Source: Thermodesulfobacteriota bacterium (GTDB lineage: Bacteria > Desulfobacterota_D > UBA1144 > Nemesobacterales > Mycalebacteriaceae). From it: a DNA stretch of 64,000 nucleotides. Position 1 is the stretch's first letter. The number at the start of each line of letters is the position of its first letter. The stretch lies in assembly GCA_965226585.1 (NCBI GenBank), contig OZ245366.1, positions 1,344,001-1,408,000 on the forward strand, written 5' to 3'. Shown piece after piece: positions 1 to 31,290 of this stretch. Made by a program: the position numbers and the translations under genes. The notes under the pieces were generated by a model. It ran no database searches, was not told where the DNA came from, and was given only the letters and a program-made list of their open reading frames with translations.

Positions 1-3000
1 TGACCGTTCCCGAAGCTCCCGCAGAAACCGCAGAACTGCCCGTGCCTTCCGCCCAAACCTTTCCTTCGTTTGAAACATTCAAAGTTGCCGTAACTATAGA
101 ACTGCTTGTCGCCCCGTTGCTCCACACTTTCGCGCCATTGACTGTTACGGAGGTTGTTGCCGTAACTGTGTTGCTTGTTACGCCGTTTGACCAAACATCT
201 GCGCCGTTCCAAATGCTGACAGTTGGCGCAACTATGGTGTCGGTTGTGTTGCCTTCCGTCCAGACCTGAGTGCCCGTACTGTTGACTGTTGCTGTTGTTC
301 TCGCCGAAACCGCCTGACTTCCCGCGCCGTTTGCCCACACTTTCACACCGTCATTGATAAATGCCGATGATGCGTCTTTTACTGTTGAAACGCCGTCAAC
401 TGTTGTCCAAACCTGTCCGTCTCCGTCTGCTGATACGATGTTGGCATTTATTCTGCTTCTCGCCGCAACCGCCGAACTTGTCGCGCCTTCCGCCCAAACC
501 TTTCCACCGCCGGAAATATTCAAAGTTGCGGCAACTATCGTGTTGCTTGTCGCGCCGTTGCTCCACACATTCGCGTTATTGACTGTTACGGTGGTTGTTG
601 CCCTAACCGCGTTACTTGTTACGCCGTTTGACCACACATTCGCGCCGTTCCAAATATTGGTACGCGAAGCCGATACGGCGTCGCTTGTGTCGCCTTCCGC
701 CCAGACCTGAGTGCCTGTGCCGTTGACTGTTGCTGCTACAGACGGTAGTGCTGACGTCGTTACCGACGCAACCGCCGCACTGCCCGCGCCGTTTGCCCAC
801 ACTTTCACGCCGTCATTAATAAATACCTCTGCTCCTTCTACTGTGTGAACTCCGCCAACCGTTGTCCAAACCTGTCCCGTTGCGTCATCCGCCACTATGT
901 TGACCGTTCCCGAAGTTCCCGCAGCAACCGCCCCGCTTTCCGTGCCTACCGCCCAAACCTTTCCTTCATTTGAAACATTCAAAGTTGCCGTAACTACCGT
1001 GTTGCTTGATGCTCCGTTGCTCCAAACCTGCGCGTCATTAACTGTTACGGTTGTTGCCGCAACCGCTCTGCTTGTTACGCCGTTTGCCCAAACATCTGCT
1101 TTGTTCCAGATATTGACGGTTGTCGCAAGGATGGTGTCGGCTGTGCCGCCTTCGCTTGTCCAGACTTGGGTGCCCATGCCGTTGACTGTTGCCGTTGTCG
1201 CCGCAACCGCCTGACTTCCCGCTCCGTTTGCCCAAACTTTTACGCCGTCATTGATATGTGCCGTTGTCGCTTTTACTGTCGGAACGCCGCCAACCGTTGT
1301 CCAAACCTGTCCCGTTGCGTCATCCGCCACTATGTTGACCGTCCCTGAAGTTCCCGCAGAAACCGCAGAACTTGTCGTGCCTTCCGCCCAAACCTTTCCT
1401 TCATTTGAAACATTCAAAGTTTCCGTAACTATAGAGTTGCTTGTCGCCCCGTTGCTCCACACTTTCGCGTTATTAACTGTTACAGAAGTTGTTGCCGTAA
1501 CCGCATTGCTTGTTACGCCGTTTGCCCATACATCTGCGCCGTTCCAAATGCTGACAGTTGGAGCAACGATGGTGTCGGTTGTGTTGCCTTCCGTCCAGAC
1601 CTGAGTGTCTGTACTGTTGACTGTTGCCGTTGTCGCCGCAACCGCCTGACTTTCCGCTCCGTTTGCCCATACTTTTACGCCGTCATTGATATATGCCGTT
1701 GTCGCTTTTACTGTTGAAACGCCGCCAACCGTTGTCCAAACCTGTCCCGTTGCGTCATCCGCCACTATGTTGACCGTCCCTGAAGTTCCCGCAGAAACCG
1801 CAGAACTTGTCGCGCCTTCCGCCCAAACCTTTCCTTCATTTGAAACATTCAAAGTTTCCGTAACTATAGAGTTGCTTGTCGCTCCGTTGCTCCACACTTT
1901 CGCGCCATTGACTGTTACGGTTGTTGCCGTAACTGTGTTGCTTGTTACGCCGTTTGCCCAAACATCTGCTTCGTTCCAAATGTTCACAGTTGTCGCAACT
2001 ATGGTGTCGGCTGTGCCGCCTTCGCTTGTCCAGACCTGAGTGCCCGTGCCGTTGACTGTTGCCGTTGTCGCCGAAGCCGCCTGACTTCCCGCTCCATTTG
2101 CCCACACTTTCACGCCGTCATTGATATATGCCGTTGTCGCTTTTACTGTCGGAACGCCGCCAACCGTTGTCCAAACCTGTCCCGTTGCGTCATCCGCCAC
2201 TATGTTGACCGTTCCCGAAGCTCCCGCAGAAACCGCAGAACTTGTCGCGCCTTCCGCCCAAACCTTTCCTTCGTTTGAAACATTCAAAGTTGCCGTAACT
2301 ACCGTGTTGCTTGTCGCTCCGTTGCTCCACACTTTCGCGCCATTGACTGTTACGGAGGTTGTTGCCGTAACTGCGTTGCTTGTTACGCCGTTTGCCCAAA
2401 CATCTGCGCCGTTCCAAATGTTCACAGTTGGCGCAACGATGGTGTCGGTTGTGTTGCCTTCCGTCCAGACCTGAGTGTCCGTACTGTTGACTGTTGCCGT
2501 TGTTCTCGCCGCAACCGCCTGACTTCCCGCTCCGTTTGCCCACACTTTCACGCCGTCATTGATATATGCTAATGATGCTCCTCCTACTGTTGAAACACCG
2601 TTAACTGTTGTCCAAACCTGTCCGTCTCCGTCTGCTGATACGATGTTGGCCGTTATGCTACCTCTCGCATAAACCGCAGAACTGCCCGTGCCTTCCGCCC
2701 AAACCTTTCCACCGCCGGAAATATTCAAAGTTGTCGTAATTACCGTGTTGCTTGTCGCCCCGTTGCTCCACACATTCGCGTCATTAACTGTTACGGTGGC
2801 TGTTGCCCTAACCGCATTGCTTGTGTCGCCGTTAGCCCAAACATTCGCGCCGTTCCAAATGTTGACGGTTGACGCCCCGGAGATGGTGACGGTTGTGTCG
2901 CCTTCCGTCCAGACCTGAGTGCCTGCGCCGTTGACTGTTGCTGTTGTTACCTCAACCGCCCGAGTTCTCGCCCCGTTTGCCCAAACTTTCACACCGTCAT

Positions 3001-4990: not shown

Positions 4991-5036
4991 AAGGGTTCCC
5001 CTCGGAGGGTTAAATTGGATTGACTAATCTTCGGAA

Positions 5037-5065
5037 AAGATATAGTTCAACGGAAGTTGTGTCAA
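5037..5065 (-). promoter_or_regulatory. Sigma70-like promoter for AT1
   Basis: Minus strand TTGACA (5065-5060), 17 bp, TATCTT (5042-5037). A homologous promoter precedes AT4. Confidence 0.7.
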
Positions 5066-5096
5066 GAGTTGAAAAGGGAGACAGGAAAAAAATTTT

Positions 5097-6120
5097 TCAT
5101 TCCTGCGGAGGCAGGAATCCGGCATTGGTTTAGCCGGTTGAATACCAGTTGAATACTGGATTCCGTGTCAGGCACGGAATGACGGGAGGGGGAAAAAGGC
5201 ACGGAATGGCACACTTTCCCGTCATTCCTGCGGAAGCAGGAATCCAGTATTGGTTAGCCAGCTGAATACTGGATTCCGTGTCAGGCACGGAATGACGGGA
5301 TGGGGAAAAAGGCACGGAATGGCACACTTTCCCGTCATTCCTGCGAAAGCAGGAATCCAGTATTGGTTTAGCCATGTTGAATACTGGATTCCGTGTCAGG
5401 CACGGAATGACGGAAAGGAAAAAAGGCGCGGAATGACACACTTTCCCGTCATTCCTGCGAAAGCAGGAATCCAGTATTGGTTAGCCAGTTGAATACTGGA
5501 TTCCGTGTCAAGCACGGAATGACGGGATGGGGAAAAAGGCACGGAATGGCACACTTTCCCGTCATTCCTGCGGAAGCAGGAATCCAGTATTGGTTTAGCC
5601 CAGTTGAATACTGGATTCCGTGTCAGGCACGGAATGACGGGATGGGGAAAAAGGCACGGAATGACACACTTTCCCGTCATTCCTGCGGAAGCAGGAATCC
5701 AGTATTGGTTAGCCAACTGAATACTGGATTCCGTGTCAGGCACGGAATGACGGGAGGGGAAAAAGGCACGGAATGACACACTTTCCCGTCATTCCTGCGG
5801 AAGCAGGAATCCAGTATTGGTTAGCCAGCTGAATACTGGATTCCGTGTCAGGCACGGAATGACGGGATGGGGAAAAAGGCACGGAATGGCACTTCCCCGT
5901 CATTCCTGCGGAAGCAGGAATCCAGTATTGGTTAACCAGTTGAATACTGGATTCCGTGTCAGGCACGGAATGACGGGATGGGGAAAAAGGCACGGAATGG
6001 CACACTTTCCCGTCATTCCTGCGGAAGCAGGAATCCAGTATTGGTTAACCAGTTGAATACTGGATTCCGTGTCAAGCACGGAATGACGGAAAGGAAAAAA
6101 AGGCACGGAATGACGGGATG
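5097..6120. repeat. Tandem array of 9 palindromic composite units (~113 bp), BIME/NIME-like, CGTC-type REP
   Basis: Units start at ~5097 (degenerate), 5221, 5334, 5448, 5561, 5676, 5788, 5899 and 6012. Each is GTCATTCCTGCG(G/A)AAGCAGGAATCCAG + TATTGGTTAGCCAGTTGAATA + CTGGATTCCGTGTCAGGCACGGAATGAC + a purine-rich linker carrying a partial repeat end. There are no unique spacers. Confidence 0.95.
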
Positions 6121-6122
6121 GG

Positions 6123-9100
6123 TCAAAAACTGTAATTAACCCCGCCTCTGAACTCTTGCACAAAAGTATCAAAACTCGCGCTCATTCCGCCATCGTAATC
6201 AATCCTTACACTCAATTCCCGCAGAGGAGCATAAGGCGTGTATTCAAAACCCGCGCCGTAGTTGAACATTATCCGGTCCTGCCCGCCGCTTCGGGGAACA
6301 TTACCGTCAGCAAGAGTCGCCTCAAGTTCCGCCTCAGGGTTCAAGATGTGTATGTCCGCACCTGCGCGAATTCTCATATTTACCGTCTCACTCAAAGGCG
6401 AACGCGCCTCAAATGACGGACTTACATATACCAGTATCTCGCTTGTGTCTTTTACTTTGAAAGCGTCAGCTATTGCCTCAGGAGTGTTTGTTAAGGAAGT
6501 CTCATCAAACGCCCCCGCTGTTACATAAGACGCTCCAATCTCTATACGGGGAAACAACGCAAAAGTGCCGGACAAAAACGGCATTGCCGCGCCAAGCGCG
6601 CCGCCGAATACTGTTGCGTTTGTGTCCGCAGTGTAACGGTTATCTCCCGCAGTGCGGGTTGATTCCCAACTCGTAGAAACATACTGAAACCTGCCGTCAA
6701 CCATGTATCTGTCCACTATTGTGGAAGCGAAAATGCCGCCCATAAATCTTGTTGCCTCTCCGCTTGCGTCTGCTCTGCCTTCATCAGTCATCACATCCAT
6801 ATCAAGGTTTGATATTTCATAACCGCCAGCCACCGAAACAAGAATGCTGTTAAACGGCGCGGAAACGCCGCCGGTGAAGGTATAGACATCTTCGTCATAG
6901 TTAATCGCTGAAGAATAACGTGTGTACCTTCCGCCCGATGTTGCCCACACGCAACCAGTCCAGAAATCTCCGTCTATTTCATCACTTGCCGCAGAGCCGT
7001 AACCGCAACCGCTTGAAAGTTTTGTGGCAAAACTCCTGTCTGCGCGGTAAGCGGATTGTATGAGAGAATCATAAATATCTAAACTGGCATCTTTCAGCGA
7101 CATTGCCGTCAGGAAAAGGTTGCCGTCTCCATCAGTCTGAACACTTCCCCTTTCGCCTATTCCCGCATTCAGACGCTCTACAACTTCCTGCCTTTCTTCG
7201 CCTTCGGGCAGGTCGTCCGCTTCAAAAATTGTGTATTCCGTTATATGCGCTCCGGGAACATCAACTTCAACATTGAAACCTTTTACATCTTCCGCAGTTA
7301 TCTCGCCTTCAATATCTATGAGCGGTTTGCCTGTCATCTCTTCGGGGTCTGCCAAGACAACAAGGGTTGAATTTTCTCCAAAGGTTATTTTTTCCAGTCC
7401 CGCAAATCCGCCTGTGTCTTGAATTACGATTGTGCCTTCGTTTATGAAATGGTCATCGCCATCGCCAAAGTTAATGGTTGCCCGTTCCGGCTCCCGCTCA
7501 GGCGCGGCGGCGGATAGGCGGAAGCGGCTGTCGCCGCTTGCTGACCCCTCCCCCGTCATTCCTGCCTCCCCCGTCATTCCTGCGGAAGCAGGAATCCAGT
7601 ATTGGTTAGCCAGTTGAATACTGGATTCCGTGTCAGGCACGGAATGACGGGAGGGCGCGGAATGACGGGAAGGGGAGGATGCGGAATGACGGGAAGGCGC
7701 GGACGAATGACGGGCGGGCGTAGAAAGCCCCTCAACTTCGTCATCGTCACCGTATATGACCATACCCGCGCCGTTTATTATGCCGGAGTTCTCGACAATA
7801 TCATCGCCGTCTCCCGTGTCAAAATCGCCGGTAAGCGTCATAACTCCCGTTTCTTCGTTGTAGAGTTCGTCATTGCCATCGCCCATGGTGCCGCTTCCGG
7901 TGAATATGCCTCTGTTCTCGAAAAAGTCATCGCCGTCTCCCATGTCAAAAGAGCCGCCGGTAGTTGTGATAACTCCCGATTCTTTGTTGCTAACAATATC
8001 GTGAGAATCGCTCAGTTGAATATTTCCGACTATCGTTCCCATATTGTTCAGAGTAGCGTGTAAGTCCTTCCTACCTAAACTGCTCCCGTCATCGTCTAAA
8101 CGCAAGGCATCCACCCTGTTCGCGGCTGTAACCACACACTCGTTACGAAATTCCACGCCGCCGCACAAAAGACCGCCCTCATAAATTTCCACAACAGTTC
8201 CCTGATAAGACGAACTGCCGCTTCTCAAATATGCCGCCACAGAGTTCATCCCGGAGGCATACACACTCGCGCTTCTGTGGATGTAGAGTGTTGCATTGCC
8301 CGTGCCGCTGGAAGATTCTCCCTTGGAAAGCAGGATGGTTGTGCTGTCCGCTCCGGTTGTGTACACACGCGATTCGGCTATGTTCGCAACAGAAGCTCTC
8401 TTGGGCGCGTTAATATTCACCGCCACACTGTTCACACCATTTGTGAACACACCAGACGAACTGCTAATAGAAACAGTTGAGTTCGCGCTTTCCGCGCTCC
8501 CTTCCCCTATCCATATCGCGTGGCTGTCATTTGCCGCCGTGTACACCCGCGCCCCGGCGGATACTTGTATGTAGGAATCCCCGGTAGTGCTGTTAAAAGA
8601 TATGGCGTTGCTTTCCGCCCCGTTCGCAAACACTCTGGAAAAATCGTGAACCGTTATATGTCCAACCGCCTCCGTATCTACGATTATGGCACTGCCCGCT
8701 TTTGTGGTGAACACGGTTGATGACTGGTTGACTATTATTTGCGTTTTATCGTTGTTTATTCTGTCGTCAAGGTAGCTCAAATAAGGACGCTCTTCCAGAC
8801 CGTTTGCGTAGATTGCCGCGCTTCCCGCGCCGTTTGCCCACACATGAGACTGATTACCGACAGTTATAAGTTGGTCTCTGCTACTAACATTGCCGTAGAT
8901 TGTGCGCGACCCGTCTCCCTGCGACCACACGTTTGAGCCGTTGATTTCAATTCCCACAAACCGGTGGGAATCCCCCCACAGCGCGCGTCCGTCTTGCCCC
9001 GTTGCCCAAACCCTTGAGCCGTTGGCAATCACAATATAAGAATCGGTTGTTAATGATGATGTTGTCTTTGTCCTTATGCCGTATCCGTCTCTGCCCGTAG

Positions 9101-9986: not shown

Positions 9987-10016
9987 TTTTTCAGTTGGCG
10001 CACAATGTTTTTTGTC

Positions 10017-10077
10017 CGTCATTCCAATACTGGATTCCTGCTTCCGCAGGAATGACGGGAAAAGGCAATGGAATGAC
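10017..10077. repeat. Solo, rearranged palindromic repeat between AT3 and AT2
   Basis: CGTCATTCC-AATA-CTGGATTCCTGCTTCCGCAGGAATGACG (the GCGGAAGC hairpin inverted relative to the arrays), followed by another GGAATGAC end. Confidence 0.9.
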
Positions 10078-21800: not shown

Positions 21801-24800
21801 CCGTTAGCCCAGACCTTTCCGCCGCCGGAAACATTCACCGTGCCTGCGACTATCGCGTTGCTTGCGGTTGCCGTTGTCTCCGTCCAAACTTCAGAGTTGT
21901 TGACTGCCACGGTTGCCGAGACAATCGCGTTGCTTGTTGCTCCGTTAGACCATATCTTGGATTCGTTGAAAATATCCGCATGACTGCCGGTTGCGTATAT
22001 TGTGCTTGCGCCCGCGCCTTGCGACCACACCTGCGAGCCGTTGACGGTTATCCCGCCTCCGCCCTGAGTTATGCTAATGGCTCTGCCGCTCACACCGTTA
22101 GACCAAACTTTCGCTTCGTTTTCTATAGCCACACTCGCGCCTAATGTTGTTTGAATTGCGCTGCTAACCGCGCCGCTTCTGCTTCCTTCTTCCCACACTT
22201 CCGCATTGTTGACTTTTATGGATGACCCGCTTCCGGTCGCGGCAAGGGTTTCGCTTCTTCCTCCGTTAGACCAAACTTTCGCTTCGTTTTCTACGAACAT
22301 CTCGCGGTTGTCTCTTACAAATATTGTTTGCGAGTCATCACTTAGCGTCCACACTTTCGTGCTACTGCCGTTGACTCTTACACTTGCGCCGCCGCGCCCT
22401 TGAATTGCTTTACTGCCTGAGCCGTTAGTCCACACTGAGCCGCCATACACATTCACTATGCCGCGACTGCCCGTCGCAACGATTGCGTCACCGGCAGGTC
22501 CCTCCGCCCAAACCTCTGTGCCGCTGCCGTTGACTGTTACGGTTCTGGCGTTAATGGTTTCCGTTGTTCCGCCGCCGTTAGACCAGACTTTTGAACTGCC
22601 GTACACACCAACTGTTCCTGCGGCTGAAATAATTGTCTGAGAGCCGCCGCCAATCGTCCACACACTTGACGCGCCGTTGACCGTTACGGCTGTTGCCGCC
22701 GCAACTGCGTTGCTTCCCGCGCCGTTTGCCCACACGCTTACGCCGTCATTAATATATGCCGTTGTTCCTTTTACTGTTGAAACGCCGCCAACCATTGTCC
22801 AAATCTCTCCGTCTCCGTCTCTTGATATGATGTTGACCGTTGTGCCGTCTTTCGCCGCAACCGCCGAACTGTCCACTCCGTTTGCCCAAACCTTTCCGCC
22901 GCCCGAAACATTTACCGTCGCGGCAACTATCGTGTTGGCGTCAATTCCCTGCGTTGTCCAAACCTCAGAGTTGTCAACCAAAACGGTTGTCCCTTCAACG
23001 GCGTTGCTTGTTGAGCCGTTTGCCCAAACCTTCGCTCTGTTCCAAATGTTCACAGTTGGAGCCTGTATCGTGTCGCTGTCGCTGCCTTCCGTCCACACTT
23101 GCGCGCCGTTGACTGTTGCCGTTGCCGCCGTAACCGCCTGACTTGCTGAGCCGTTTGCCCACACTTTCAGGTCGTTGATTTCCGCCGTTGTTGTTGCTTT
23201 TACTGTCGGAACTCCTCTGAGCGTTGTCCAAATCTCTCCCGTTCCGTCTGCTGATACGATGGTAACCCCTCCGCCCGTTTCCGCAGAAACCGCCGAACTG
23301 TCTGTGCCGCTTGCCCATACCTTGCCCAGATTTGAAACGTTGACTGTTGTGCCAACTATCGCGTTGCTTGTGGCTCCGTTAGCCCAAACGTGGGTGTCTG
23401 TGCCGTTGACTATAACGGTTGCCGCCTTTACCGTGTTGCTTGTCGCTCCGTTTGACCACACTTTCGCGCCGTTCCAGATGTTTGCCGTGCCTGTTGCAAC
23501 TATGGTGTTGCTTGTGTCGCCGTTTGCCCACACTTCCGCTGTGCCGTTGATTGTTACGGTTGCCGCCGTAACCGCCTGACTTGTTACGCCGTTAGACCAC
23601 ACTTTCAAGCCGTGAATGCCTGCCGTTGTTGTTGCCTTTACCGTTGAACTTCCCGAAGCGTTAGACCACACTTCTCCCTTCCCGTCTCTTGATACGACCG
23701 TAACCCCTCCGCCGGCTTTCGCTGAAATTGCCGAACTTCCGGAAGCGTTAGACCACACTTTCGCGTCATTTGAAGCGTTGACCGTGTCGGCAACTATAGA
23801 GTTGCTTGTGCCGCCCGTTGTCCACACTTCAGAGCCGTTGACCACAACAGTTGTTGCTGAAATGGCGTTGGCTGTCGCTCCGGTAGCCCGCACTTTTGAG
23901 GCGTTCCACACATTCGCGCCAGCTGCTGAGATTGTGGTGGCTCCCGTTTTGTTCGTCCACACATCCGCGCCGCTGACATCAACATCACCGGTCGCCAAAA
24001 TCGCGAAATCCGAACCGTTGCCGCCAATATCTGCGTCCACAACATTCACCGTTGACGCATTAATTGCCGCAAATCCGCCTTCCGTCCAGACGGAAAGACC
24101 GTTATCTTGTCCCGCCACTACTGACAGGGTTCCCGTGCCCGTGGTTGACGCTTCAATGGCAATACTTCCGGCTCCATCCGCCCACAAAACTGAACCGCCG
24201 TTTCCGCCTATGTTTATGTCTCCGCCGCTTGTGGATTTTGCTATAATGCCGTTCCCGCCTGTGGGGATTGAGCCTTTTCCGCCTCTTCCATAGACGATTC
24301 CGTTTGCGAGAGCAAGGTTAATATCTCCGATAGCCGTGCTGGCTATGATGCCGTCTTTACCAACTATGCAGGCGGTGTCGTTCGCAAGTACCATGCTTAT
24401 GGATCCCGTGCCTCCGGTGGTTGCCGCCAAGCCGTAAGAGTTTCCTACGGATGAGGCAACTATTGCCGCGCTGTTTGTAATTTCAACTGTTATGGCTCCG
24501 CCTGCGGATGTGAGTGTCGCGCCTCTTGTGTCTAAAAGTTCGTCCCGCCTTGTCGAGTCCCGCGTTGCCGCATTGATAACCATGTGGATGTACGATTTTT
24601 CGTCTGCAAGCGTAAAGTCAATATCTCCGCTTGTTGTGTTTGCTATCAGGCCGTTCGTGCCGCTTTGATCCGAAAAGATTAATCCCTTAGTGGAGATGTC
24701 CACGTCCACTTTTCCGACTGTGGATGTTGCTATAATGCCGTTTCCGCCGGTTCCCCCGATTTTAACTCTTGTGGTGTTGTGAATATCTACATTCACAACG

Positions 24801-25186
24801 CCCGTTCCGGCTGTGATGGTAGCAACGTTTCCATCGCTTCCGTTTTTGACGGTGAACGAGCCGTTATCGCCTCTGAAGGTAGCGTCAGTCGCGCCGCCGA
24901 TAACTACTGCGTCTCCGTCTGTCCGGGTTGTTGTGGTTGTTGCATTGGAAGAGGTAAGGTTGGCAGACCCTGTGGCGGAGTTGACTGTAACAACGGGACC
25001 ATCCGTAACCACGGAAGGCAAACCGTCTGTGATGTTAAGCGTGGCGTCTCCTGTTGTGGAAGTACAATCAATTGCGGTTGCGGTATCCGGGTTCACATCG
25101 CCGCAAGTCCTTTGCGCATGGGAGTTTTGCGGCGCAAAAGCAAATAGAATTGCGAACAGAGAGATAATGGTTAATTTTCTGTGCAT
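15842..25186 (-). CDS. AT4: giant autotransporter-like adhesin, 3114 aa
   Basis: Signal peptide MHRKLTIISLFAILFAFAPQNSHA, a long VW-repeat passenger with internal duplications, an acidic C-proximal passenger region, and a barrel ending RLNVAF. Confidence 0.9.
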   Translation of the reverse strand: MHRKLTIISLFAILFAFAPQNSHAQRTCGDVNPDTATAIDCTSTTGDATLNITDGLPSVVTDGPVVTVNSATGSANLTSSNATTTTTRTDGDAVVIGGATDATFRGDNGSFTVKNGSDGNVATITAGTGVVNVDIHNTTRVKIGGTGGNGIIATSTVGKVDVDISTKGLIFSDQSGTNGLIANTTSGDIDFTLADEKSYIHMVINAATRDSTRRDELLDTRGATLTSAGGAITVEITNSAAIVASSVGNSYGLAATTGGTGSISMVLANDTACIVGKDGIIASTAIGDINLALANGIVYGRGGKGSIPTGGNGIIAKSTSGGDINIGGNGGSVLWADGAGSIAIEASTTGTGTLSVVAGQDNGLSVWTEGGFAAINASTVNVVDADIGGNGSDFAILATGDVDVSGADVWTNKTGATTISAAGANVWNASKVRATGATANAISATTVVVNGSEVWTTGGTSNSIVADTVNASNDAKVWSNASGSSAISAKAGGGVTVVSRDGKGEVWSNASGSSTVKATTTAGIHGLKVWSNGVTSQAVTAATVTINGTAEVWANGDTSNTIVATGTANIWNGAKVWSNGATSNTVKAATVIVNGTDTHVWANGATSNAIVGTTVNVSNLGKVWASGTDSSAVSAETGGGVTIVSADGTGEIWTTLRGVPTVKATTTAEINDLKVWANGSASQAVTAATATVNGAQVWTEGSDSDTIQAPTVNIWNRAKVWANGSTSNAVEGTTVLVDNSEVWTTQGIDANTIVAATVNVSGGGKVWANGVDSSAVAAKDGTTVNIISRDGDGEIWTMVGGVSTVKGTTAYINDGVSVWANGAGSNAVAAATAVTVNGASSVWTIGGGSQTIISAAGTVGVYGSSKVWSNGGGTTETINARTVTVNGSGTEVWAEGPAGDAIVATGSRGIVNVYGGSVWTNGSGSKAIQGRGGASVRVNGSSTKVWTLSDDSQTIFVRDNREMFVENEAKVWSNGGRSETLAATGSGSSIKVNNAEVWEEGSRSGAVSSAIQTTLGASVAIENEAKVWSNGVSGRAISITQGGGGITVNGSQVWSQGAGASTIYATGSHADIFNESKIWSNGATSNAIVSATVAVNNSEVWTETTATASNAIVAGTVNVSGGGKVWANGTTSSAVAARTGTVNIVSTDGDGQVWTTVGGVQTVKGATAYINDGVKVWANGAGSQAVSATTTATVNSTNTQVWTEGNTTDTIVAPTVNIWNEADVWANGVTSNTVTATTSVTVNNAKVWSNGATSNTVVTATLNVSNEGKVWAEGTGSSAVSAGVSGTVNIVADDATGKVWTTVGGVQTVKATTAYINDGVKVWANGTGSQAVSATTIATVNSFRTEVWTEGDTTDTIKAPTVNIWNRAKVWANGSTSNAVEGTTVLVDNSEVWTTQGSDANTIVAATVNVSGGGRVWANGVDSSAVAAKDGTTVNIISVDGGGEVWTTVGGVSTVKATTAYINDGVKVWANGTGSRAASATTVTVNSAETEVWTEGDTTDTITAPTVTIWNSAKVWANGATSNAASATTSVTVNGASVWSNGATSNAIVTATLNVSNEGKVWASGASTSSAVSAGASGTVSIVADDATGQIWTTLGGARTVKATAAYINDGVKVWANGAESRAVSAGSSATVNGTDTQVWTEGNTTDTIASAAISIWNGAKVWANGAASNAVRATTVVTVNGAGTQVWAEADVTGTVADFASDGLLTFTTEGEISAAIVSDQLVTVEADAQVWANGAGGRAVISPLLQANGAKIWTQSLGGSVTVETQSADISNGTELWAETTLGDSEAIALVQLDADSTEILLNLRGSDVWTNGPGATTISFYEAGTTADIDIASSNVWTNSAGDGSAAISAYTLDGAIGMDVVSSNVSAFYTPTPAASGYNPIAISTIAFWNGVSTVNVTDSNVWAGDADDFSPTAISVNSESGGVADMTVRDSNVFSNSAGATAIYASATKRATNASLVANLTDARAADRGITNLHINSSTVTVTLGEGTAVEVATYNGGNASAEIANGTDIIALGADSKGIFAHAELGGSPFVSVNGSNVTAMGVNSAAISLLTEHAGETLGEDAITGLARFNGTDLFDLEANGTFNLKIENSTTLSVLFGIELGETRLVVDSGVTSAEVVNGANVSARGLNSVAADVSTMDGGISTLSVREGAAIWTTGANSSAVKLSTVDGENTETQFSTAITRFDASQAWTNGANSTVFEADAGEGPIVINIDNGTEVWVEGDNSVVFDLTAGAGYGVELAVHNSVVGINSQDGEILKIAGSDDDITVTSTNSSFRSGDSVTGPLFSASVETSDATVKIRDFTISGKSNIGITEIDRVWTTGENAVAFDFAHSSADPAAVGTYFDPRQVWSEGVDSGAIRIETVSGEVSLETGAQIWSNGSDTATISVRRVAAASSSVPRSSSHDSSNRIQHFSGFPTVDVGAPTEVKFSAPDGETAQVWAEGLSSSAIHTWLSGLVLEDARVWSNSSGGNTVKIVAAALDQQLQVGNGAIVCGGVLSGTTCTETAAVNAVHFSIDSGSTAGIGITTHSDGNITGRIQLAGGADTFINEGDFTGSGDTGGGNDTITIKSGSTFTLTGNLDLGAGDGDTVTTETGSTLTVGSFMFENAETTPSAGGTGRFRLSSGAQSSPASGGGARFSLSAIDPASEDTHASIDFGEGGNDRFISNGTTVIEGADGFTGLESIKFGEGATLVVSASSGEMADKPLIDIEGTITAEDLPEDFNIRLGAGLNHGEYVIFASEDLPENPAEIYERLGADENGFVTLAANNELNLQVYDALIQSAYYSDRYFGSHLRKGCGGGASVDGEGVVSGGCVWALSGGRFTRHSPDFEFDETAYSFVGGVSMPFAGIATSLGFGYEASSFDVTEENSGGVADADFERFMFGLFASKTIFEKVQIDGRFEFAQGDWSSSRTDMKTIDVNTTPTDPNDDSRFDGRFGAKTDARTYGGAAGAEMSFDYGEFTVIPRIETGITYIETEQFVESFLGQGTDTTNTGEEDNKLTVNQFDDILIYATPSVSALYSSNDTLTLSATLGVDAHILNPESDIKATIGDDEPVNTTGTLERINIKVGAGAEITPTESVTFTLNYDGGASAGFDTVTHAVTGRLNVAF

Positions 25187-25229
25187 TAAGGGTTCCCTAG
25201 AGGGGTAACTGGGTTAACTAATCTTGGAG

Positions 25230-25258
25230 AATGTATAGTTGAACGGGGGTTGTGTCAA
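25230..25258 (-). promoter_or_regulatory. Sigma70-like promoter for AT4(-AT3)
   Basis: Minus strand TTGACA (25258-25253), 17 bp, TACATT (25235-25230); homologous to 5037-5065. Confidence 0.7.
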
Positions 25259-25287
25259 GAATTAAAAGGGGGGGGCAGGAAAAAATT

Positions 25288-25870
25288 TTCACTCCTGCGG
25301 AGGCAAGAATCCGGTAGTTAGCCCAGTTGAATACTGGATTCCGTGTCAGGCACGGAATGACGGAAAGAAAAAAAGGCGCGGAATGGCACACTTTCCCGTC
25401 ATTCCTGCGAAAGCAGGAATCCAGTATTGGTTAGCCCAGTTGAATACTGGATTCCGTGTCAGGCACGGAATGACGGAAAGGAAAAAGGCACGGAATGACA
25501 CACTTTCCCGTCATTCCTGCGAAAGCAGGAATCCAGTATTGGTTAGCCCAGTTGAATACTGGATTCCGTGTCAGGCACGGAATGACGGGAAGGAAAAAGG
25601 CACGGAATGGCACACTTCCCCGTCATTCCTGCGGAAGCAGGAATCCAGTATTGGTTAGCCCAGCTGAATACTGGATTCCGTGTCAGGCACGGAATGACGG
25701 AAAGGGGAAAAAGGCACGGAATGACGGGAAGGAAAAAAGGCACGGAATGGCACACTTCCCCGTCATTCCTGCGGAAGCAGGAATCCAGTATTGGTTAGCC
25801 AGCTGAATACTGGATTCCGTGTCAGGCACGGAATGACGGAAAGGAAAAAAGGCGCGGAATGACGGGATGG
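25288..25870. repeat. Second tandem array of the same palindromic unit, 5 units
   Basis: Units at ~25288 (degenerate), 25398, 25510, 25622 and 25762, with the same consensus as 5097-6120. Confidence 0.95.
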
Positions 25871-25872
25871 GG

Positions 25873-28800
25873 TCAAAAACTGTAATTAACCCCGCCTCTG
25901 AACTCTTGCACAAAAGTATCAAAACTCGCGCTCATTCCGCCATCGTAGTCAATCCTTACACTCAATTCACGCAAGGGAGCATAAGGCGTGTACTCAAAAC
26001 CCGCGCCGTAGTTGAACATTATCCTGTCCTGCCCGCCGCTTCGGGGAACATTACCGCCATCAAGGGTCGCCTCAAGTTCCGCCTCAGGGTTCAAGATGTG
26101 TATATCCGCCCCCACGCGAATTCTCATATTTACCGTCTCACTCAAAGGTGAACGCGCCTCAAATGAGGGGCTTACATATACCAGTATCTCACTTGTGTCT
26201 TTTACCTTGAAAGCATCAGCCCTTGCCTCAGGAGTGTTTGTTAAGGAAGTCTCATCAAACGCCCCCGCTGTTACATAAGACGCTCCAATCTCTATACGGG
26301 GAAACAACGCAAAACTCCCCGATAAAAACGGCATTGCCGCGCCAAGCGCGCCGCCGAATACTGTCGCGTTTGTATCCGCAGTGTATCTATTATCTCCCGC
26401 AGTGCGGGTTGACTCCCAACTTGTGGAAACATACTGAAACCTGCCGTCAACCATATATCTGTCAACTATTGTGGAGGCAAAAATGCCTCCCATAAATCTC
26501 GTTGCTTCTCCGCTTGCGTCTGCCCTGCCTTCATCGGTCATCACATCCATATCAAGGTTTGATATCTCATAACCGCCTGCCACCGAAACAAGAATGCTGT
26601 TAAACGGGGCTGATACTCCGCCGGTGAAGGTATAGACATCTTCATCATAGTTAATCGCTGAAGAATAACGTGTGTACCTTCCTCCCGATGTTGCCCATAC
26701 GCATCCAGTCCAGAAATCTCCGGCTATCTCATCACTTGCCGCAGAGCCGTAACCGCAACCGCTTGAAAGTTTTGTGGCAAAACTCCTGTCTGCGCGGTAA
26801 GCGGATTGTATGAGAGAATCATAAATATCCAGACTGGCGTCTTTCAGCGACATTGCCGTCAAAAACAGGTTGCCGTCTCCGTCTGTCTCAACACTCACTC
26901 TTTCACCCGCCGCCGCGCTCAGACGCTCTACAACTTCCTGCCTTTCTTCGCCTTCGGGCAGGTCGTCCGCTTCAAAAATTGTGTACTCGTTTATATGCGT
27001 TCCGGGAACATCAACCCTGACTCTAAAACCTTCAATATCTTCCGCAGTTATCTCGCCTTCAATATCTATGAGCGGTTTGTCATTCATTTCTTCAGGGTCT
27101 GCCGAGACAACAAGGGTTGAATTCGCGCCGAAAGTTATTTTGTCCAAGCCGTTAAAACCGCCCGCGCCGGCAAGAACTATTGTGCCTTCATTTATGAAAT
27201 GGTCATCGCCTTCGCCAAAGTTAATGGTTGCCCGTTCCGGCTCCCGTTCAGGCGTGGAAGAAAGACGGAAACGGCTGTCGCCGCTTGCTGACCCCTCCCC
27301 CGTCATTCCTGCCTCCCCCGTCATTCCTGCGGAAGCAGGAATCCAGTATTGATTAGCCAGTTGAATACTGGATTCCGTGTCAGGCACGGAATGACGGGAG
27401 GGCGCGGACGAATGACGGGAAGGGGAGGATGCGGAATGACGGGAGGGCGATGATTGCGCGCCTGAACTTGCCGGCGTAGGAGTAGTCGGTGTAGGCGTTA
27501 TCGTGTGCGTGTCATCGCCTGCTACTGTGCCGCCGTCCAAATTCACAAAAGTGTCATCACCGGCTCCCATGTCAAAATCTCCGGTGAGGGTGAAGGTTCC
27601 CCTGTTGTTCACTACGTCATCACCGGCTCCCATGCTGCCGCTTCCGGTGAATGAGCCGTTGTTTTCAAAAGTCTCCGCACGCCCGGAAGTCTGCAGAATT
27701 CCCGTTATGCTTCCCGCGTCCAAAGCAGTTCCCCCGGCGGTGGTTTCAGCCGCATGAGTTACAATCTTTATCACCCCTCCCGTACTGTCCGCCGCAATAT
27801 CGCCCGCCGCAATTGTTACCGCGTTTCCGGCGGTCGCGTTCACAACCGAACCCGCGCTCACATCAACCGTTACAGCTCCGGTGGTGGTGGAAACAGAAAT
27901 TGTATCGGCATCAGCCGCTACCGTGTGCGCGGCGGAAAACGGACGCATATAGACTTGCGCGTGTCCACTTGCGGTTGTCGCGATAATCGCCCTTCCACCC
28001 GCGCCGCCCGCTCTGACTGCGGCGCCGTCTCTTACATAGATAATGGATTGTCCCCCTCCGGTAACTCGCGCGTTAAGCCCGATTCCGCCCATGCCGTCTG
28101 CGGTTATCTCCCGCTTAATTCCCCCCGCATCATCCGCGCTTCCGTTACTCCATGCCGCGTTGATAATCGCGTGAGCATCCCGCGAGACGGCATCAACAAC
28201 CGTGCTTCCCACGCCGTTTGCGAATATGCTGTTTCCCGGACCCCCAAGCCAAATCTCTGAATTTTGCCTTAGTGAAACTGTTTCTATCACCTTACTGCCA
28301 TCGCCGTTTGCGAATATCGCGCCGTTTGCGTGAACAATCGTCTTCTGAGCGTCCGTGTTTGCAAAGACTGTTTTACTGCGGTCGCCGTCAGACCACACTT
28401 CCGCGCCTGACTCAACGACAAATGTCGTCGGTCTTCTGTTTCCCGACTGCATTCTTACAGTTGCGCTGTCCACGCCGTTTGTCCAGATTTTTGAGGTTCC
28501 CTCGGCACTGGCGCGCGCAGAGGCGTCTTTGGCGTGAACACGCAGACCTATGCTTGAATCCCCATGCGCGAACACCTGCGCGGAGCCTATAACCCGAACA
28601 TTCATATCTCCGTGCCTTTGGTTGATGTCGTGTCTGGCAAGGGGTCCCGGGTCGGAGGAAGCGAAAATGGCGTTACTGTTCCCCTCCGTTACTCCAACGC
28701 TTGCCGTGTCAGAGATTGTTATTATTGACGGGGCTTGGAGACCTATTGCCCTGATTGCCGTGCTTCCCGCGCCGTTTGCGCGCACTGTTGCCCTGCCGCG

Positions 28801-31290
28801 TATGTTGGCAATAACTCCATCCATGACATGTGGACTCACGGCTAACCCGCCCGCGTTAATGGCGTAACTGCCGTCTCCCACCGAAAAAATTTCTGCGTCA
28901 TCCTTGATGTCCAGAACCGTTTTTGTTGAACTCGCACCGCGTGTCGGGCTACTCGGGTTAAATCCCGCATTCGCTCTAATTGCGGTTGATGAATCGCCGT
29001 ATGAATACACTTTTGAGTGTCCGTTGATTATGATGGAAGGGGGTTTTTCAGCACCTTCCACCGATATCGCCGCGCTCCGGACGCCGCTGGAGTGGATTTG
29101 CGGGGAATCCCCACCTCTGCCGATATACATTCTAAGTGTTCCCTGAGTACCGCTTATAAAGTTGACCGCCGCGCTTCTGTCCCCTACTGAGAAAACTTCC
29201 ACGCTGTCATAAATTCTCAACTCCGCGGTTCCTGCCTGAGAGTTAATCCTAACCCCGCTTCCGTCCGCGCCGTTTGCCCACACTTTCGCGCTATCCATTA
29301 AGGTTATGAGTTGAAAGGTGGTGCCGCCTGAATCCATAAGCAGTCCTGTTCCCCCGCCGTTGGTGAAAACCCGGGAAGAGTCGAAAATACGAGCATTTAC
29401 CCACTTTGTTGATGTTCCGGCTCCGCGAACGCGCGCGGCATATCCACTGCCGAGTGTATAGACTTGCGAACTTCCTTGTATATCAAGGCGCGCCCTTGCT
29501 TTGCTGTAAATATCCAAGCCGTCTGTTCCCGCTCCGTCCGCCGTTACTTTTGCGGAGCCCTTCACATTGAACCAGATTTCCCCGTCGGTTGACCTTGTGT
29601 TGTCCACTAAAGCCGCAATTCCGCCGTCTCCGTTAGCGGAAAGCACCGATGAGCCGTCCAAGCTGACAACAATTTTGCCCTGTGACGGATTGATAAGAAG
29701 TCCGCGACCTCCGCTCCGTCCGCTTACTTCCGCGCTGCCGCTCATTTCAAATGTTTTTGTCCCGCCTGTGTCTTGACTCAAATCAACCGCGATTCCGCCG
29801 CCGTTTGCCGTTACCCGCGAGTCGCCTGAAACCACAACACGCCCCAATCCCCTGACTGCCGTGCCGGTCGCGCCTTGTGTCCACACCCGCGCCTTGCCTG
29901 AAATATCCACCCTTCCGGTTGTTGTTATCGCGTTGCTGTCTGCGCCGTTAGCCCATATTTTCGCGCCGCCTGAAACGGCTACTGTTCCAGTCGCCCTTAC
30001 GGTTGAAGCCTCATCTGCGGCTGTCCAAATCCCTCCCGTTTCGTCAAGTGTGATTGTTAAGGTTCCCGCAGTTTTGGCATTGATGGCGACACCGCCCCTG
30101 CCGTTGGCATAGATTACTGAACCGGTGTCTCCGGTGATGTTTATGTCGCCGTTTATTGATGTTGCATCAACACCTATCCCGGCTTGGTCAGCTATGGAAG
30201 TACTAATTCCGTAGGCTTCCGTATAGGCTGAATTCAGTTGACCTCTTCCCCTTCCCTCAATTAGCCCACTTGAGAGTGTAATATCAATATCTCCGTCAAC
30301 CGTGTTTGCTATAACTCCGTTTCTGCCGACTATGGTGGATACACCGTTCAACAAATTTATCTCTATGCTTCCGGCACCTCCGGTAACCGCCGCCAAACCG
30401 TAGGAGTCTCCCACGGATGAAGCCACGATTTCCGCCTGATCCGTCAGGTTGACCGTTATGTCGCCGCTTGCGCTTGTGGCTGTCGCGGCTTTGGTGTCAG
30501 ACGCCAAATCCCGCATTCCGCCCACATAAGAATAGATTCCCGAATAGATGCCCAAAAACGAAAGTTCAATGTCTCCGGCTTGCGTCTCCATCTCAATGCC
30601 TTTTGTCTCGCCCGCCACTCTAAAGTCGTAGTCATAAATCTCAACCTTCTCTACTTCAATCACTGTGCCGGTCAAAATATTATAAGGAACTTGCACGCCG
30701 TCTCTGATTGTAGAATGCTCATATATGGGTATAGGCAGTATGTCAGCCGCATCCGGCAGTGGGTACACCTCAATTCTGCTTTTTCCGCTGAACTCCGCCA
30801 CCGCTTTCCCGCTCTGGCTTGATATGTAAATGCCGTTGCCGGTGCCAACTCCGTCAATGTTAATAACTGAACCGTTGTGAATCCCCACCACCGCGTCTCC
30901 GGTGCCGGCTTTTACAACGGCAACGGTGCCTCTTCTTCCGTCTTTGTCTGCGCGCGCCGCGCCGTCAAGTATAAAGGTCGCGCCCCGCGCACCGCCAACA
31001 TCTATGGTGGAACCGCCGGTTGCGGTTGTTTTTATAACCGAGCCGGTTGCGGAAAAAGCGGCGTCCGCTCCCGCCGCTGTGGTGTTGACCGTAACGGCGG
31101 TTGCGTCTGTAACTTTAGTTGGTGAACCGTCTGTGATTGTTAATGTGGCATCTCCCGATGATTTGGTACAGGAAAGAGCGCCGCCCGCGGGCGTTACCGC
31201 GCCGCAGTCTGCCTGAGCATACGATTGATGGTGTGGTGTAAAAGCGAATAAAAGGGCGAGCAGAGAAAAGACTGTTAGTTGTTTGCGCAT
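25873..31290 (-). CDS. AT5: autotransporter-like adhesin, 1805 aa
   Basis: Signal peptide MRKQLTVFSLLALLFAFTPHHQSYA and a beta-helix passenger. The last ~500 aa are nearly identical to AT2 and end GGVNYSF. Confidence 0.9.
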   Translation of the reverse strand: MRKQLTVFSLLALLFAFTPHHQSYAQADCGAVTPAGGALSCTKSSGDATLTITDGSPTKVTDATAVTVNTTAAGADAAFSATGSVIKTTATGGSTIDVGGARGATFILDGAARADKDGRRGTVAVVKAGTGDAVVGIHNGSVINIDGVGTGNGIYISSQSGKAVAEFSGKSRIEVYPLPDAADILPIPIYEHSTIRDGVQVPYNILTGTVIEVEKVEIYDYDFRVAGETKGIEMETQAGDIELSFLGIYSGIYSYVGGMRDLASDTKAATATSASGDITVNLTDQAEIVASSVGDSYGLAAVTGGAGSIEINLLNGVSTIVGRNGVIANTVDGDIDITLSSGLIEGRGRGQLNSAYTEAYGISTSIADQAGIGVDATSINGDINITGDTGSVIYANGRGGVAINAKTAGTLTITLDETGGIWTAADEASTVRATGTVAVSGGAKIWANGADSNAITTTGRVDISGKARVWTQGATGTAVRGLGRVVVSGDSRVTANGGGIAVDLSQDTGGTKTFEMSGSAEVSGRSGGRGLLINPSQGKIVVSLDGSSVLSANGDGGIAALVDNTRSTDGEIWFNVKGSAKVTADGAGTDGLDIYSKARARLDIQGSSQVYTLGSGYAARVRGAGTSTKWVNARIFDSSRVFTNGGGTGLLMDSGGTTFQLITLMDSAKVWANGADGSGVRINSQAGTAELRIYDSVEVFSVGDRSAAVNFISGTQGTLRMYIGRGGDSPQIHSSGVRSAAISVEGAEKPPSIIINGHSKVYSYGDSSTAIRANAGFNPSSPTRGASSTKTVLDIKDDAEIFSVGDGSYAINAGGLAVSPHVMDGVIANIRGRATVRANGAGSTAIRAIGLQAPSIITISDTASVGVTEGNSNAIFASSDPGPLARHDINQRHGDMNVRVIGSAQVFAHGDSSIGLRVHAKDASARASAEGTSKIWTNGVDSATVRMQSGNRRPTTFVVESGAEVWSDGDRSKTVFANTDAQKTIVHANGAIFANGDGSKVIETVSLRQNSEIWLGGPGNSIFANGVGSTVVDAVSRDAHAIINAAWSNGSADDAGGIKREITADGMGGIGLNARVTGGGQSIIYVRDGAAVRAGGAGGRAIIATTASGHAQVYMRPFSAAHTVAADADTISVSTTTGAVTVDVSAGSVVNATAGNAVTIAAGDIAADSTGGVIKIVTHAAETTAGGTALDAGSITGILQTSGRAETFENNGSFTGSGSMGAGDDVVNNRGTFTLTGDFDMGAGDDTFVNLDGGTVAGDDTHTITPTPTTPTPASSGAQSSPSRHSASSPSRHSSAPSRHSVPDTESSIQLANQYWIPASAGMTGEAGMTGEGSASGDSRFRLSSTPEREPERATINFGEGDDHFINEGTIVLAGAGGFNGLDKITFGANSTLVVSADPEEMNDKPLIDIEGEITAEDIEGFRVRVDVPGTHINEYTIFEADDLPEGEERQEVVERLSAAAGERVSVETDGDGNLFLTAMSLKDASLDIYDSLIQSAYRADRSFATKLSSGCGYGSAASDEIAGDFWTGCVWATSGGRYTRYSSAINYDEDVYTFTGGVSAPFNSILVSVAGGYEISNLDMDVMTDEGRADASGEATRFMGGIFASTIVDRYMVDGRFQYVSTSWESTRTAGDNRYTADTNATVFGGALGAAMPFLSGSFALFPRIEIGASYVTAGAFDETSLTNTPEARADAFKVKDTSEILVYVSPSFEARSPLSETVNMRIRVGADIHILNPEAELEATLDGGNVPRSGGQDRIMFNYGAGFEYTPYAPLRELSVRIDYDGGMSASFDTFVQEFRGGVNYSF
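27301..27443. repeat. In-frame copy of the palindromic unit inside AT5
   Basis: Partial head, full unit and two tails; encodes PSRHSASSPSRHSSAPSRHSVPDTESSIQLANQYWIPASAGMTGEAGMT. Confidence 0.95.

Follow-up and report, generated by a model that had tools for sequence, protein, structure and literature searches.

In Neisseria meningitidis, NTS/SRM repeats with a CGTC tail, an ATTCC-GGAAT stem and a CCAG tail cluster at surface-protein genes in a host that carries competence genes, and a ~95-aa single-domain GIY-YIG nuclease, SsnA, is encoded between inverted copies (Chenal et al. 2025, PMC11893778). SsnA cleaves a few bases upstream of the NTS, and 2% of the copies are intragenic (PMC11893778). 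The dRS3/NIME arrays stand beside variable outer-membrane genes, including an autotransporter gene (Bentley et al. 2007, PMC1797815; PMC3723659), and deletion of the nalP autotransporter gene between dRS3 clusters has been described in Neisseria (PMC3723659). NIME arrays were proposed as recombination substrates and were stated to be unseen outside Neisseria (PMC1797815). That dRS3/NTS arrays cause surface-gene variation is a hypothesis (PMC1797815); PMC11893778 sets out two alternatives. Finally, the CGTC-1 and CGTC-2 REPs, the intragenic REPs and Rickettsia RPE-4 and RPE-6 share 8-bp stems and 4- or 5-nt loops; REPs of this kind occur as head-to-head dimers, frequently adjoin 3′ ends, and where in frame add 20-30 residues, maybe in flexible linkers (Di Nocera et al. 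2013, PMC3733652).

The locus studied here, within a stretch of 64,000 nucleotides (the window), resembles all of these systems in stem, loops, tails, dimers, nuclease gene, competence genes and arrays beside surface-protein genes. Unlike N. meningitidis NTS, it has two hairpin types whose stems are altered yet paired, one target family of 31 paralogs, two ssn copies inside autotransporter (AT) clusters, and ~10% intragenic copies (29/281), all at one site in one family; it also belongs to a distant lineage (homologs are labelled Thermodesulfobacteriota MAG). Whereas NIMEs are mosaics of many RS families, the arrays here are built of regular 113-bp dimer units, exchange is among paralogs and the element is also translated. 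The intragenic REPs of PMC3733652 are spread over unrelated genes, in contrast to the one homologous linker occupied here in 14 paralogs, apparently through conversion. A literature search found no paper on one repeat both between and inside autotransporter paralogs.

The repeat and its nuclease gene

The element was defined by the strict pattern CGTCATTCC-N10/11-GGAATCCAG. The window contained 32 matches, the last ending at 27396, and one decayed copy at 5095 (full span 5095-27396); all lay inside the AT cluster, as the sequence-only reading had stated, and 27397-64000 gave 0 strict matches. GGAATCCAG alone occurred 32 times in the window, against 0.37 expected from shuffled sequence, and a lone GTCATTCC at 37650 had no second arm downstream. 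The hairpins are of two types, with 4-nt and 5-nt loops (128 exact copies of type A and 125 of type B), stand head to head in pairs, and are predicted to fold strongly. They match the NTS definition, oriented, with a CGTC 5′ tail, ATTCC-GGAAT stem and CYRG 3′ tail (PMC11893778), and also the CGTC-1/CGTC-2 REPs in the 8-bp stem, 4- or 5-nt loop, CCA tail and head-to-head dimers. Judged by its sequence, the element is a CGTC-type REP and Ssn-related motif of the Neisseria dRS3/NTS family; stem, tails and nuclease gene all agree with the dRS3-like identity proposed earlier.

Two near-identical genes for a 96-aa Ssn-like GIY-YIG protein, 1 nt apart in sequence, were found at positions 1209374 and 1333306 of the genome (G000). 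Both lie outside the window in AT clusters, one of them 10 kb before the window start, and each forms the loop of a head-to-head hairpin pair, with the repeat on both sides in both copies. The spacer of the dimers matches the two joined flanks of this hairpin-ssn-hairpin cassette. The protein scored above the PF01541 cut-off and is 57% identical over 92 aa to an unannotated, NTS-flanked Neisseria gonorrhoeae homolog; its Y8, Y19 and E66 have the spacing of SsnA Y6, Y17 and E64 and are identical in the aligned gonococcal homolog. It is a predicted Ssn-type nuclease and likely the cutting enzyme of the hairpins. The ssn gene of the congener G001 is also repeat-flanked, with its own stem variant, and the competence genes comEC and dprA are present in the genome studied here. 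A RAYT was rejected as mobiliser, the only Y1 gene (window 49314-50138; NF047646, 76.3 bits against a cut-off of 80) not being REP-flanked and having no element within 21 kb. A scan of 31 window proteins revealed no site-specific recombinase.

The autotransporter family and the placement of the repeat

The features of the cluster within the window are as follows.

1..4990, minus strand: AT1, 5′ part of a gene for a 2735-aa autotransporter that the window edge truncates, with ~145-aa internal passenger repeats and without in-frame element
5037..5065, minus strand: sigma-70-like promoter site before AT1, right after the array, a consensus match only
5095..5122, plus strand: decayed type A hairpin at the array edge
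5156..6114, no strand: array of 17 alternating hairpins and half-sites, from the AT2 stop to the AT1 promoter
6123..10022, minus strand: AT2, 1299-aa ORF
7527..7712, minus strand: AT2 in-frame element block of 62 codons, with half-site repeats and two hairpins, then RFRLS (7526)
10018..10077, minus strand: single type A hairpin (10030-10057) and half-sites in the AT3/AT2 gap
10085..15829, minus strand: AT3, 1914 aa, C-terminal 459 aa modelled
11487..11515, minus strand: single in-frame type B hairpin in the AT3 linker, in the same form in P0011 and P0023 from other assemblies
15842..25186, minus strand: AT4, 3114 aa, PF03797 barrel, linker without element
25230..25258, minus strand: sigma-70-like promoter site before AT4, a consensus match only
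25291-25310: decayed hairpin near the AT4 promoter-like site
25334..25863, no strand: array of 9 hairpins (25334-25838) and half-sites, from the AT5 stop to the AT4 promoter
25873..31290, minus strand: AT5, 1805 aa, first cluster gene, adjoining fmt, with no element upstream
27274..27441, minus strand: AT5 in-frame element block of 56 codons, with half-sites and two hairpins, then RFRLS (27273)

The arrays at 5156-6088 and 25334-25838 accordingly stand after two stops and before two promoter-like sites, and one copy (10030-10057) lies between AT3 and AT2, as had been described. The hairpins of the AT2/AT1 array (5156-6088) form ~113-bp head-to-head dimer units. The AT4-to-AT3 joint is 13 nt long and without element. 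The first ATG of AT2 falls within an element half-site, and the likely start is 12 codons downstream. The count of five autotransporters fell short: the cluster comprises eight and reaches 25 kb beyond the window start.

Model building on the C-terminal 459 aa of AT3 gave a beta block, a helix and a 12-stranded barrel (pLDDT 71.8), with NalP, EstA and BrkA as best Foldseek matches; a single-sequence AT model (pLDDT 34) had no usable fold. PF03797 was above cut-off in AT3 and AT4, and AT2 and AT5 had no Pfam match, although the C-terminal block of AT2 shares 43-46% identity with those of AT3/AT4 and 94% with that of AT5. Pfam searches on the full-length proteins returned 0 families, and a PDB sequence search with the AT alignment gave no match. 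The proteins resemble type Va autotransporters (NalP 1uyn, EstA 3kvn, BrkA 3qq2, EspP 2qom) in their signal peptide, called here by eye, their long passenger, and a helix plus 12-stranded barrel ending in Phe. They differ in a lineage-specific barrel family, at 12-16% identity to solved structures, and in the element-derived linker. Pfam detected no catalytic domain in the ATs, and the family is known here as predicted surface proteins. None of the 40 relatives searched contained the AT C-terminal block, and collection scans gave 4 loci only, weak and unrelated-looking.

Genome-wide, 281 copies in 68 clusters were counted, which rules out an element restricted to the window locus. Copies within or next to the 31 AT genes or fragments, a paralog family taking up 10.7% of the 1.48-Mb genome, make up 69% of the total. 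On gene sets from a crude in-house ORF caller, the element follows 22/23 operon-terminal AT stops and 24/330 other genes, and its enrichment at AT genes (odds ratio ~90-280) excludes an even scatter and upholds the expected genome-wide enrichment near surface-protein genes. It lies upstream of 19/23 leading ATs, four being without, and at 0/8 short operon-internal AT-to-AT joints; arrays reach up to 18 hairpins. The terminal stops that carry the element span barrels down to 32-45% alike and several different junction sequences, and homology between paralogous units extends, at promoters as at stops, as far as the repeats and into them. Co-duplication alone is insufficient, because 22/23 terminal stops are occupied, the barrels are divergent and the junction sequences vary.

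In-frame copies and recombination breakpoints

The in-frame element was found in 14/23 ATs having the RFRLS linker, in a single orientation throughout. In the window it is a dimer in AT2 (type B 7621-7649, type A 7572-7599), a single hairpin in AT3 and a dimer in AT5 (27368-27396 and 27319-27346), each directly before RFRLS; AT1 and AT4 have none. The claim of in-frame copies at one linker of AT2, AT3 and AT5 therefore stood as regards the site. The linker is not the passenger/barrel border, however: its distance from the C-terminus is 450-490 residues, and ~140 residues predicted to form beta structure follow it; in the AT3 model this beta block separates it from helix and barrel.

On the barrel tree the in-frame state required 7 changes, at least 5 of them forced, and formed one group in 0/200 bootstrap trees, so that inheritance from a single ancestral AT was rejected; the copies are spread over at least five barrel clades. 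In the in-frame orientation 45/80 intergenic dimers contain a stop, whereas the reverse is open in 91/91 dimers; in-frame dimers of frame length were open in 11/11 cases. Independent insertion into each linker is disfavoured because the copies share a single orientation, the less permissive one. A single insertion that gene conversion then distributed is thus the likely source of the in-frame copies. One further insertion is evident from a decayed reverse copy in gene 27460 and in P0001.

Homologs from other assemblies displayed the linker in empty (P0012), single-hairpin and dimer states, P0011 and P0023 having the single hairpin where their orthologs in this genome have dimers. Two passengers were found on different barrels in other assemblies, in agreement with the proposed passenger/barrel recombination; together with the linker states, this indicates that the shuffling is real. 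Of these two barrel swaps, that of P0011 has a crossover window that takes in the element; in P0001 the linker has no intact repeat, and the barrel class switches 60-100 residues further downstream. In P0023, the AT5 ortholog, the pairing of passenger and post-linker region is unchanged. In runs X5 and X6, passengers were 4-9% different, against 2-3% for backbone genes.

Two side observations came from the read-derived contigs. A joint resembling the single-hairpin linker was present in X4, X5 and X6, a weak hint given its short side of 21 letters, and a loose end near 7811 in X6 carried a 21-nt piece without match in G000.

Paralog tract comparison confirmed that the genes are mosaic. Breakpoints were spread over ~300 nt on the upstream side of the element and ~350 nt on the downstream side, with a ~1.5-fold excess at it. 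Across the element the Spearman rho of pairwise identities among 14 genes was 0.49; it was 0.18 both at -294 to -144 and at +150 to +300, and 0.74-0.88 from +285 on. Tree discordance 150-300 nt on either side equalled or exceeded that at the element, and the repeat-less ATs likewise had their lowest rho at +150 to +213. Tract ends fell at the element in 16/93 cases, in 11% of the length (p = 0.04), or in 16/49 against the immediate flanks (p = 0.08), counts in which gene pairs are non-independent and block length variation inflates the number at the element.

Some ends are exact. Genes 445149 and 1189475 have 785 nt in common at 99.2%, ending at the element, and both diverge from the flank of the repeat-less 1340783 and 1359842 ~7 nt before CGTC; 771678 and 1189475 have a common tract beginning at the element. 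In genes 445149, 771678 and 1189475, A-class sequence spans the stretch between the element and +60-170 nt, beyond which other barrel classes take over. Of the breakpoint enrichment expected earlier at the repeats, a mild excess and some exact ends were seen, but most breakpoints are spread around. The stronger claim, that the element borders exchangeable promoter-plus-passenger and linker-plus-barrel cassettes, was not supported: breakpoints fall on both sides, which also speaks against a fixed crossover site of the programmed exchange or shufflon type, and no gene pair has a whole promoter-plus-passenger block in common. The longest tract between units was 1507 nt, and no two whole units were near-identical. 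No deletion product of repeat, RFRLS and barrel without passenger occurred among 30 matches; the two barrels without a passenger each have a signal peptide of their own, and the first 130 residues of the block are missing from them. An internal deletion at G000 686540 left a promoter and barrel stub with a joint without repeat.

Origin of the association

In the reading that we prefer, at a probability of roughly 0.58, an Ssn-type repeat accumulated at AT ends and in one flexible linker, and the family probably diversifies through ordinary homologous recombination and gene conversion, which take the repeat with them and sometimes cross over there. Since swap points are spread around the repeat and not fixed, the repeat likely rides along and does not direct recombination. 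The dimers would derive from the hairpin-ssn-hairpin unit by loss of the gene, and the Ssn nuclease would have aided their spread. One hairpin may have entered a Ser/Pro/Gly linker before RFRLS in frame, been copied to paralogs within conversion tracts a few hundred bases long and later become a dimer. The persistence of the repeats at AT loci would reflect how often duplications and single-stranded recombination intermediates arise there, and that insertions are tolerated or favoured.

A domesticated Ssn-hairpin system, in which single-strand cuts just 5′ of the hairpins start or trim AT exchange over tracts of some hundred bases and the repeats would so concentrate variation on surface genes, is possible though doubtful. 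The enrichment at ATs, a discordant zone centred on the linker beside a coherent barrel, the competence genes and the excess divergence of passengers in X5 and X6 would all fit, as would the divergence of 445149 and 1189475 just upstream of CGTC, SsnA cutting a few bases upstream (PMC11893778). The repeat-less ATs nevertheless have their lowest rho in the same zone, the P0001 swap and the 686540 deletion occurred without an intact repeat, and Neisseria SsnA decreased, not increased, integration of NTS-bearing DNA. Congeners with few repeats also still diversify their ATs: G001, G004 and G005 have 7, 9 and 10 PF03797 matches against 11, 3 and 1 strict repeats, and in G001 every one of these surrounds the ssn copies.

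Flanking arrays might instead recombine so that whole AT units duplicate or move, with the in-frame copies a by-product; such movement by the arrays would be the reason why units at about a dozen chromosomal sites are repeat-bounded at both ends. Homology that extends into the repeats, the repeat-free operon-internal joints beside 19/23 leading ATs with a copy upstream, and the nalP loss (PMC3723659) point this way, but without near-identical whole units, and with tracts of at most 1507 nt and four leading ATs lacking an upstream repeat, we consider it unlikely. Very unlikely is a role confined to RNA, the hairpins serving as terminators, insulators or mRNA stabilisers of long transcripts: it would suit their strong folding, their location just past stops and ahead of promoter-like sites, their absence from operon-internal joints and the frequency of REPs beside 3′ ends (PMC3733652), yet leaves in-frame copies and arrays of up to 18 hairpins unexplained and is at odds with just 24/330 other gene ends. 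As no X1, X4, X5 or X6 contig bridges an array or in-frame dimer, gene order across the repeats is unproven. An assembly chimera behind the cluster or the mosaics is nonetheless extremely improbable. Unique 0.5-2.5 kb passenger blocks recur in X1 (0 differences) and in X4 (0-1.1%), their depth close to that of the backbone; one X5 contig links the AT5 5′ end with fmt and aspS; and the orthologs P0023 and P0013, from other assemblies, track single genes over their full length.

The data describe a Neisseria-like pairing of repeat and surface genes in a distant lineage and give no support to the strict cassette model. Since the first meningococcal genomes it has been asked whether dRS3/NTS repeats cause variation at surface genes or simply gather beside them, and this is an independent, unusually clean case, with one repeat family, its nuclease gene and one 31-member paralog family. 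With one repeat, one nuclease, 22/23 stops and 14 linkers, breakpoints can be counted against the repeat, and the count favours collecting and riding along over defining cassettes, the mild excess remaining. In addition, a selfish repeat has spread in frame across the members of one gene family, apparently by conversion, and different assemblies have the linker empty, with a single hairpin or with a dimer. The outcome would be slow combinatorial surface variation between strains and no programmed switch. That Ssn cuts at the hairpins, at both unit ends and in the linker, start a conversion that reshuffles passengers and barrels among ~30 paralogs, in a pairing that arose independently of Neisseria, is a rather unlikely proposal; if true, surface variation would have a new source in such cuts.

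Autotransporter family and its setting

The genome is a single contig of 1.48 Mb (GC 51.6%); the window covers its positions 1344001–1408000, and positions 1–31290 of the window are occupied by five long open reading frames, AT1 to AT5, all on the minus strand. The cluster exceeds the window, with eight related genes over genome positions 1318889–1375290, and a profile search with the C-terminal 310 residues returned 31 related genes or fragments, amounting to 10.7% of the genome. The barrels of AT3 and AT4 passed the PF03797 cut-off; those of AT2 and AT5 fell below it and are tied to the family by 43–46% identity. The last 459 residues of AT3 were predicted from a 17-row alignment to form a short beta block, a long helix and 12 strands (pLDDT 71.8), and the top structural matches of this model were the NalP, EstA and BrkA translocators. 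The proteins are type Va autotransporters. A protein family scan found no catalytic family among those in the window, and a role in adhesion may be supposed. Homologues beyond this genome were few and were labelled Thermodesulfobacteriota MAG or unlabelled. Other features recorded were:

Window 42297–47402: low-GC island (39–41%) with genes for an AAA_15/OLD-like ATPase, a C5 methyltransferase, a PD-(D/E)XK nuclease and an AAA_14/DUF4143 ATPase, which probably serve in restriction or defence
Window 49314–50138, plus strand: RAYT-like Y1 transposase with a C-terminal HTH, slightly below the NCBIfam cut-off; no hairpin repeat nearby
Window 54806–56872, minus strand: subtilase-family protease; no evidence ties it to the conserved RFRLS motif of the autotransporter linkers
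Genome 453061–462063: 3000-residue autotransporter of a different family with the top PF03797 score; no hairpin repeat adjoining
Genome 1230245–1232363: two passenger-less autotransporter barrels in tandem, each with a signal peptide
Genome 1192985 region, autotransporter 1189475: run of eight C in the signal-peptide codons that throws the gene out of frame, which may reflect phase variation by strand slippage or an error in sequencing
Upstream of autotransporter 771678: run of nine C

The hairpin repeat and its nuclease gene

The repeat comprises two kinds of hairpin, each with an 8-bp stem and a loop of 4 or 5 nt, tailed by CGTC on the 5′ side and CCAG on the 3′ side; they occur in 128 and 125 exact copies, mostly paired head to head across a 21-nt spacer. 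It matches the definitions of the CGTC-1 and CGTC-2 REPs (PMC3733652) and of the NTS (PMC11893778). The window holds 32 strict copies and one decayed copy, all within 5095–27396 and none beyond, mainly in two arrays of 17 and 9 hairpins; 0.37 matches to a 9-base arm were expected by chance. The sequence-only reading had placed every copy in the autotransporter cluster, at module boundaries and in-frame linkers, and both statements held, the copies lying mostly in the arrays.

The genome-wide map proposed with it also revealed enrichment at autotransporter genes. A looser pattern gave 281 copies in 68 clusters, with 163 copies in gaps adjoining an autotransporter and 30 inside autotransporter reading frames (one of them in a miscalled 5′ extension), together 69%. 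Gaps of at least 60 nt carried the repeat in 25 of 29 cases beside an autotransporter versus 20 of 307 elsewhere. Of the 22 occupied gaps not next to an autotransporter, 11 lay within 10 kb of one. A copy was present within 200 nt of the stop codon of operon-ending autotransporters (22/23) versus other genes (24/330), and upstream of leading autotransporters (19/23) versus the comparison set (19/398); the upstream and 3′ counts are not independent, many copies being common to a neighbour's 3′ end. None of eight short joints between autotransporters contained it. Type and orientation vary among the 3′ junctions, which include barrels only 32–45% alike, so the repeat reached autotransporter ends after the family had diverged, and more than once. 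Loci outside the family include housekeeping genes (names read by eye) and a group containing genes for a phosphate porin and an outer-membrane efflux protein. An isoleucyl-tRNA synthetase-like gene of 954 residues (name by eye; genome 833076–835940, minus strand), whose last ~12 residues and stop are derived from the repeat, is the only non-autotransporter protein above 200 residues with such a peptide.

Two 96-residue GIY-YIG nuclease-like genes (ssn), one base apart in sequence, each lie in the loop of a head-to-head hairpin pair inside arrays in autotransporter clusters, one of them lying 10.4 kb ahead of the window. Their product shares 57% identity with an NTS-flanked Neisseria gonorrhoeae homologue, and its Tyr, Tyr and Glu residues are spaced as in SsnA. 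Because the dimer spacer equals the two flanks of the gene joined, the hairpin dimers are likely gene-less derivatives of the nuclease cassette.

The autotransporter family was not found in searches of five congener genomes (AspS 76–79% identical), which have 1–10 PF03797 matches of their own and 0–19 strict repeats. In one, G001, all 11 strict repeats surround two ssn copies; at 1389545–1390012 five tandem units, each of one hairpin and the first 60 bases of ssn, precede an intact ssn, a snapshot of array growth out of the cassette. In another, G002, one of 12 regions examined has a repeat after a 2746-residue autotransporter with a C terminus as in gene 46738 of the genome under study, and several adjoin another small paralogue family. 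The G002 copies beside several of these paralogues, and at some housekeeping loci also occupied in the genome under study, are of a stem variant of the repeat.

Copies in frame in the linker

An in-frame block of 19–90 codons, in a single orientation throughout, lies directly upstream of the RFRLS motif in 14 of the 23 autotransporters with this linker. In the orientation used, 45 of the 80 intergenic dimers contain a stop, versus 0 of 91 dimers in the reverse. Of the in-frame dimers, the 11 whose length preserves the frame are all open, and two that have a 22-nt spacer are compensated. On a barrel tree of 30 genes and P0001, a homologue from another assembly (an 88-residue stub excluded), the block takes seven changes, at least five of them forced; a single origin with spread by conversion fits best. 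Among further homologues, P0012 (closest to gene 1018407) has an empty linker, while P0011 and P0023, orthologues of 771678 and AT5, have a single hairpin where those genes have dimers; AT3 retains the single form. The linker states in other assemblies show the steps. Gene 27460 and P0001 have a decayed copy in the opposite orientation.

Exchange of passengers and barrels

Shuffling of passengers and barrels is real. Two of five homologues compared with this genome's set, P0011 and P0001, have a known passenger on a different barrel class; P0012, P0013 and P0023 (which stops shortly past the linker) showed no re-pairing. Some exchanges end at the repeat, among them a 785-nt tract common to 445149 and 1189475 (99.2%). 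The sequence-only reading, which divided the locus into exchangeable promoter–passenger and linker–barrel cassettes, was partly supported; its use of the repeat as the cassette border was not borne out. The P0011 switch falls in a span from the repeat to ~50 residues downstream, and that of P0001 lies 60–100 residues past the linker, which in P0001 holds no intact repeat. For the 14 genes that carry the repeat, pairwise identities had a rank correlation of 0.49 across the excised repeat, 0.18 at both −294 to −144 and +150 to +300, and 0.74–0.88 from +285 on; autotransporters with no repeat had their minimum at the same barrel-side place. No autotransporter pair in the genome had a whole promoter and passenger in common.

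A copying model placed eight donor switches in the repeat bin (range 1–9 over 29 bins). Tracts of at least 200 nt and 95% identity had 5.8 ends per kb at the repeat, against 4.1 and 3.2 per kb in its flanks; the barrel had 3.25 and the passenger 1.0. The excess at the repeat (p = 0.08 versus the flanks, 0.04 versus the whole C-terminal region) is inflated by variation in block length. The repeat sits inside a zone of recombination and is one of several crossover sites. At 686500–686811 of the genome an internal deletion has joined an autotransporter-type promoter straight to the final 88 codons of a barrel, and the joint has no repeat.

Four sequencing runs, in the form of contigs, were compared over two stretches. 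Run X4 differed at 87 of 10219 backbone bases and at 28 of 2507 bases of the AT5 passenger; for X5 and X6 the differences came to ~2–3% in the backbone, ~4–9% in the AT2 and AT5 passengers and ~3% in that of AT3, so passenger blocks persist across strains. In X5 the start of AT5 is linked to fmt and aspS on one contig. Support for the assembly is piecewise, and arrays and dimers were not crossed by any contig. X1 is possibly the source sample. The genome also has comEC and dprA.

Published work already describes arrays next to variable surface genes, with a recombination hypothesis (PMC1797815), dRS3 clusters flanking the nalP autotransporter with deletions between them (PMC3723659), and in-frame CGTC repeats (PMC3733652). 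No literature was found on one such repeat both between and inside autotransporter paralogues, in a search that covered few subscription journals. In a less probable reading, Ssn cuts would have an active role in the exchange; the Neisseria enzyme lowered integration of NTS-bearing DNA (PMC11893778). We favour, at a probability of roughly 0.58, a course in which an Ssn-type repeat colonised an expanding surface-protein family, inserted in frame at a single flexible linker, and is carried along by the conversion that diversifies the autotransporters.
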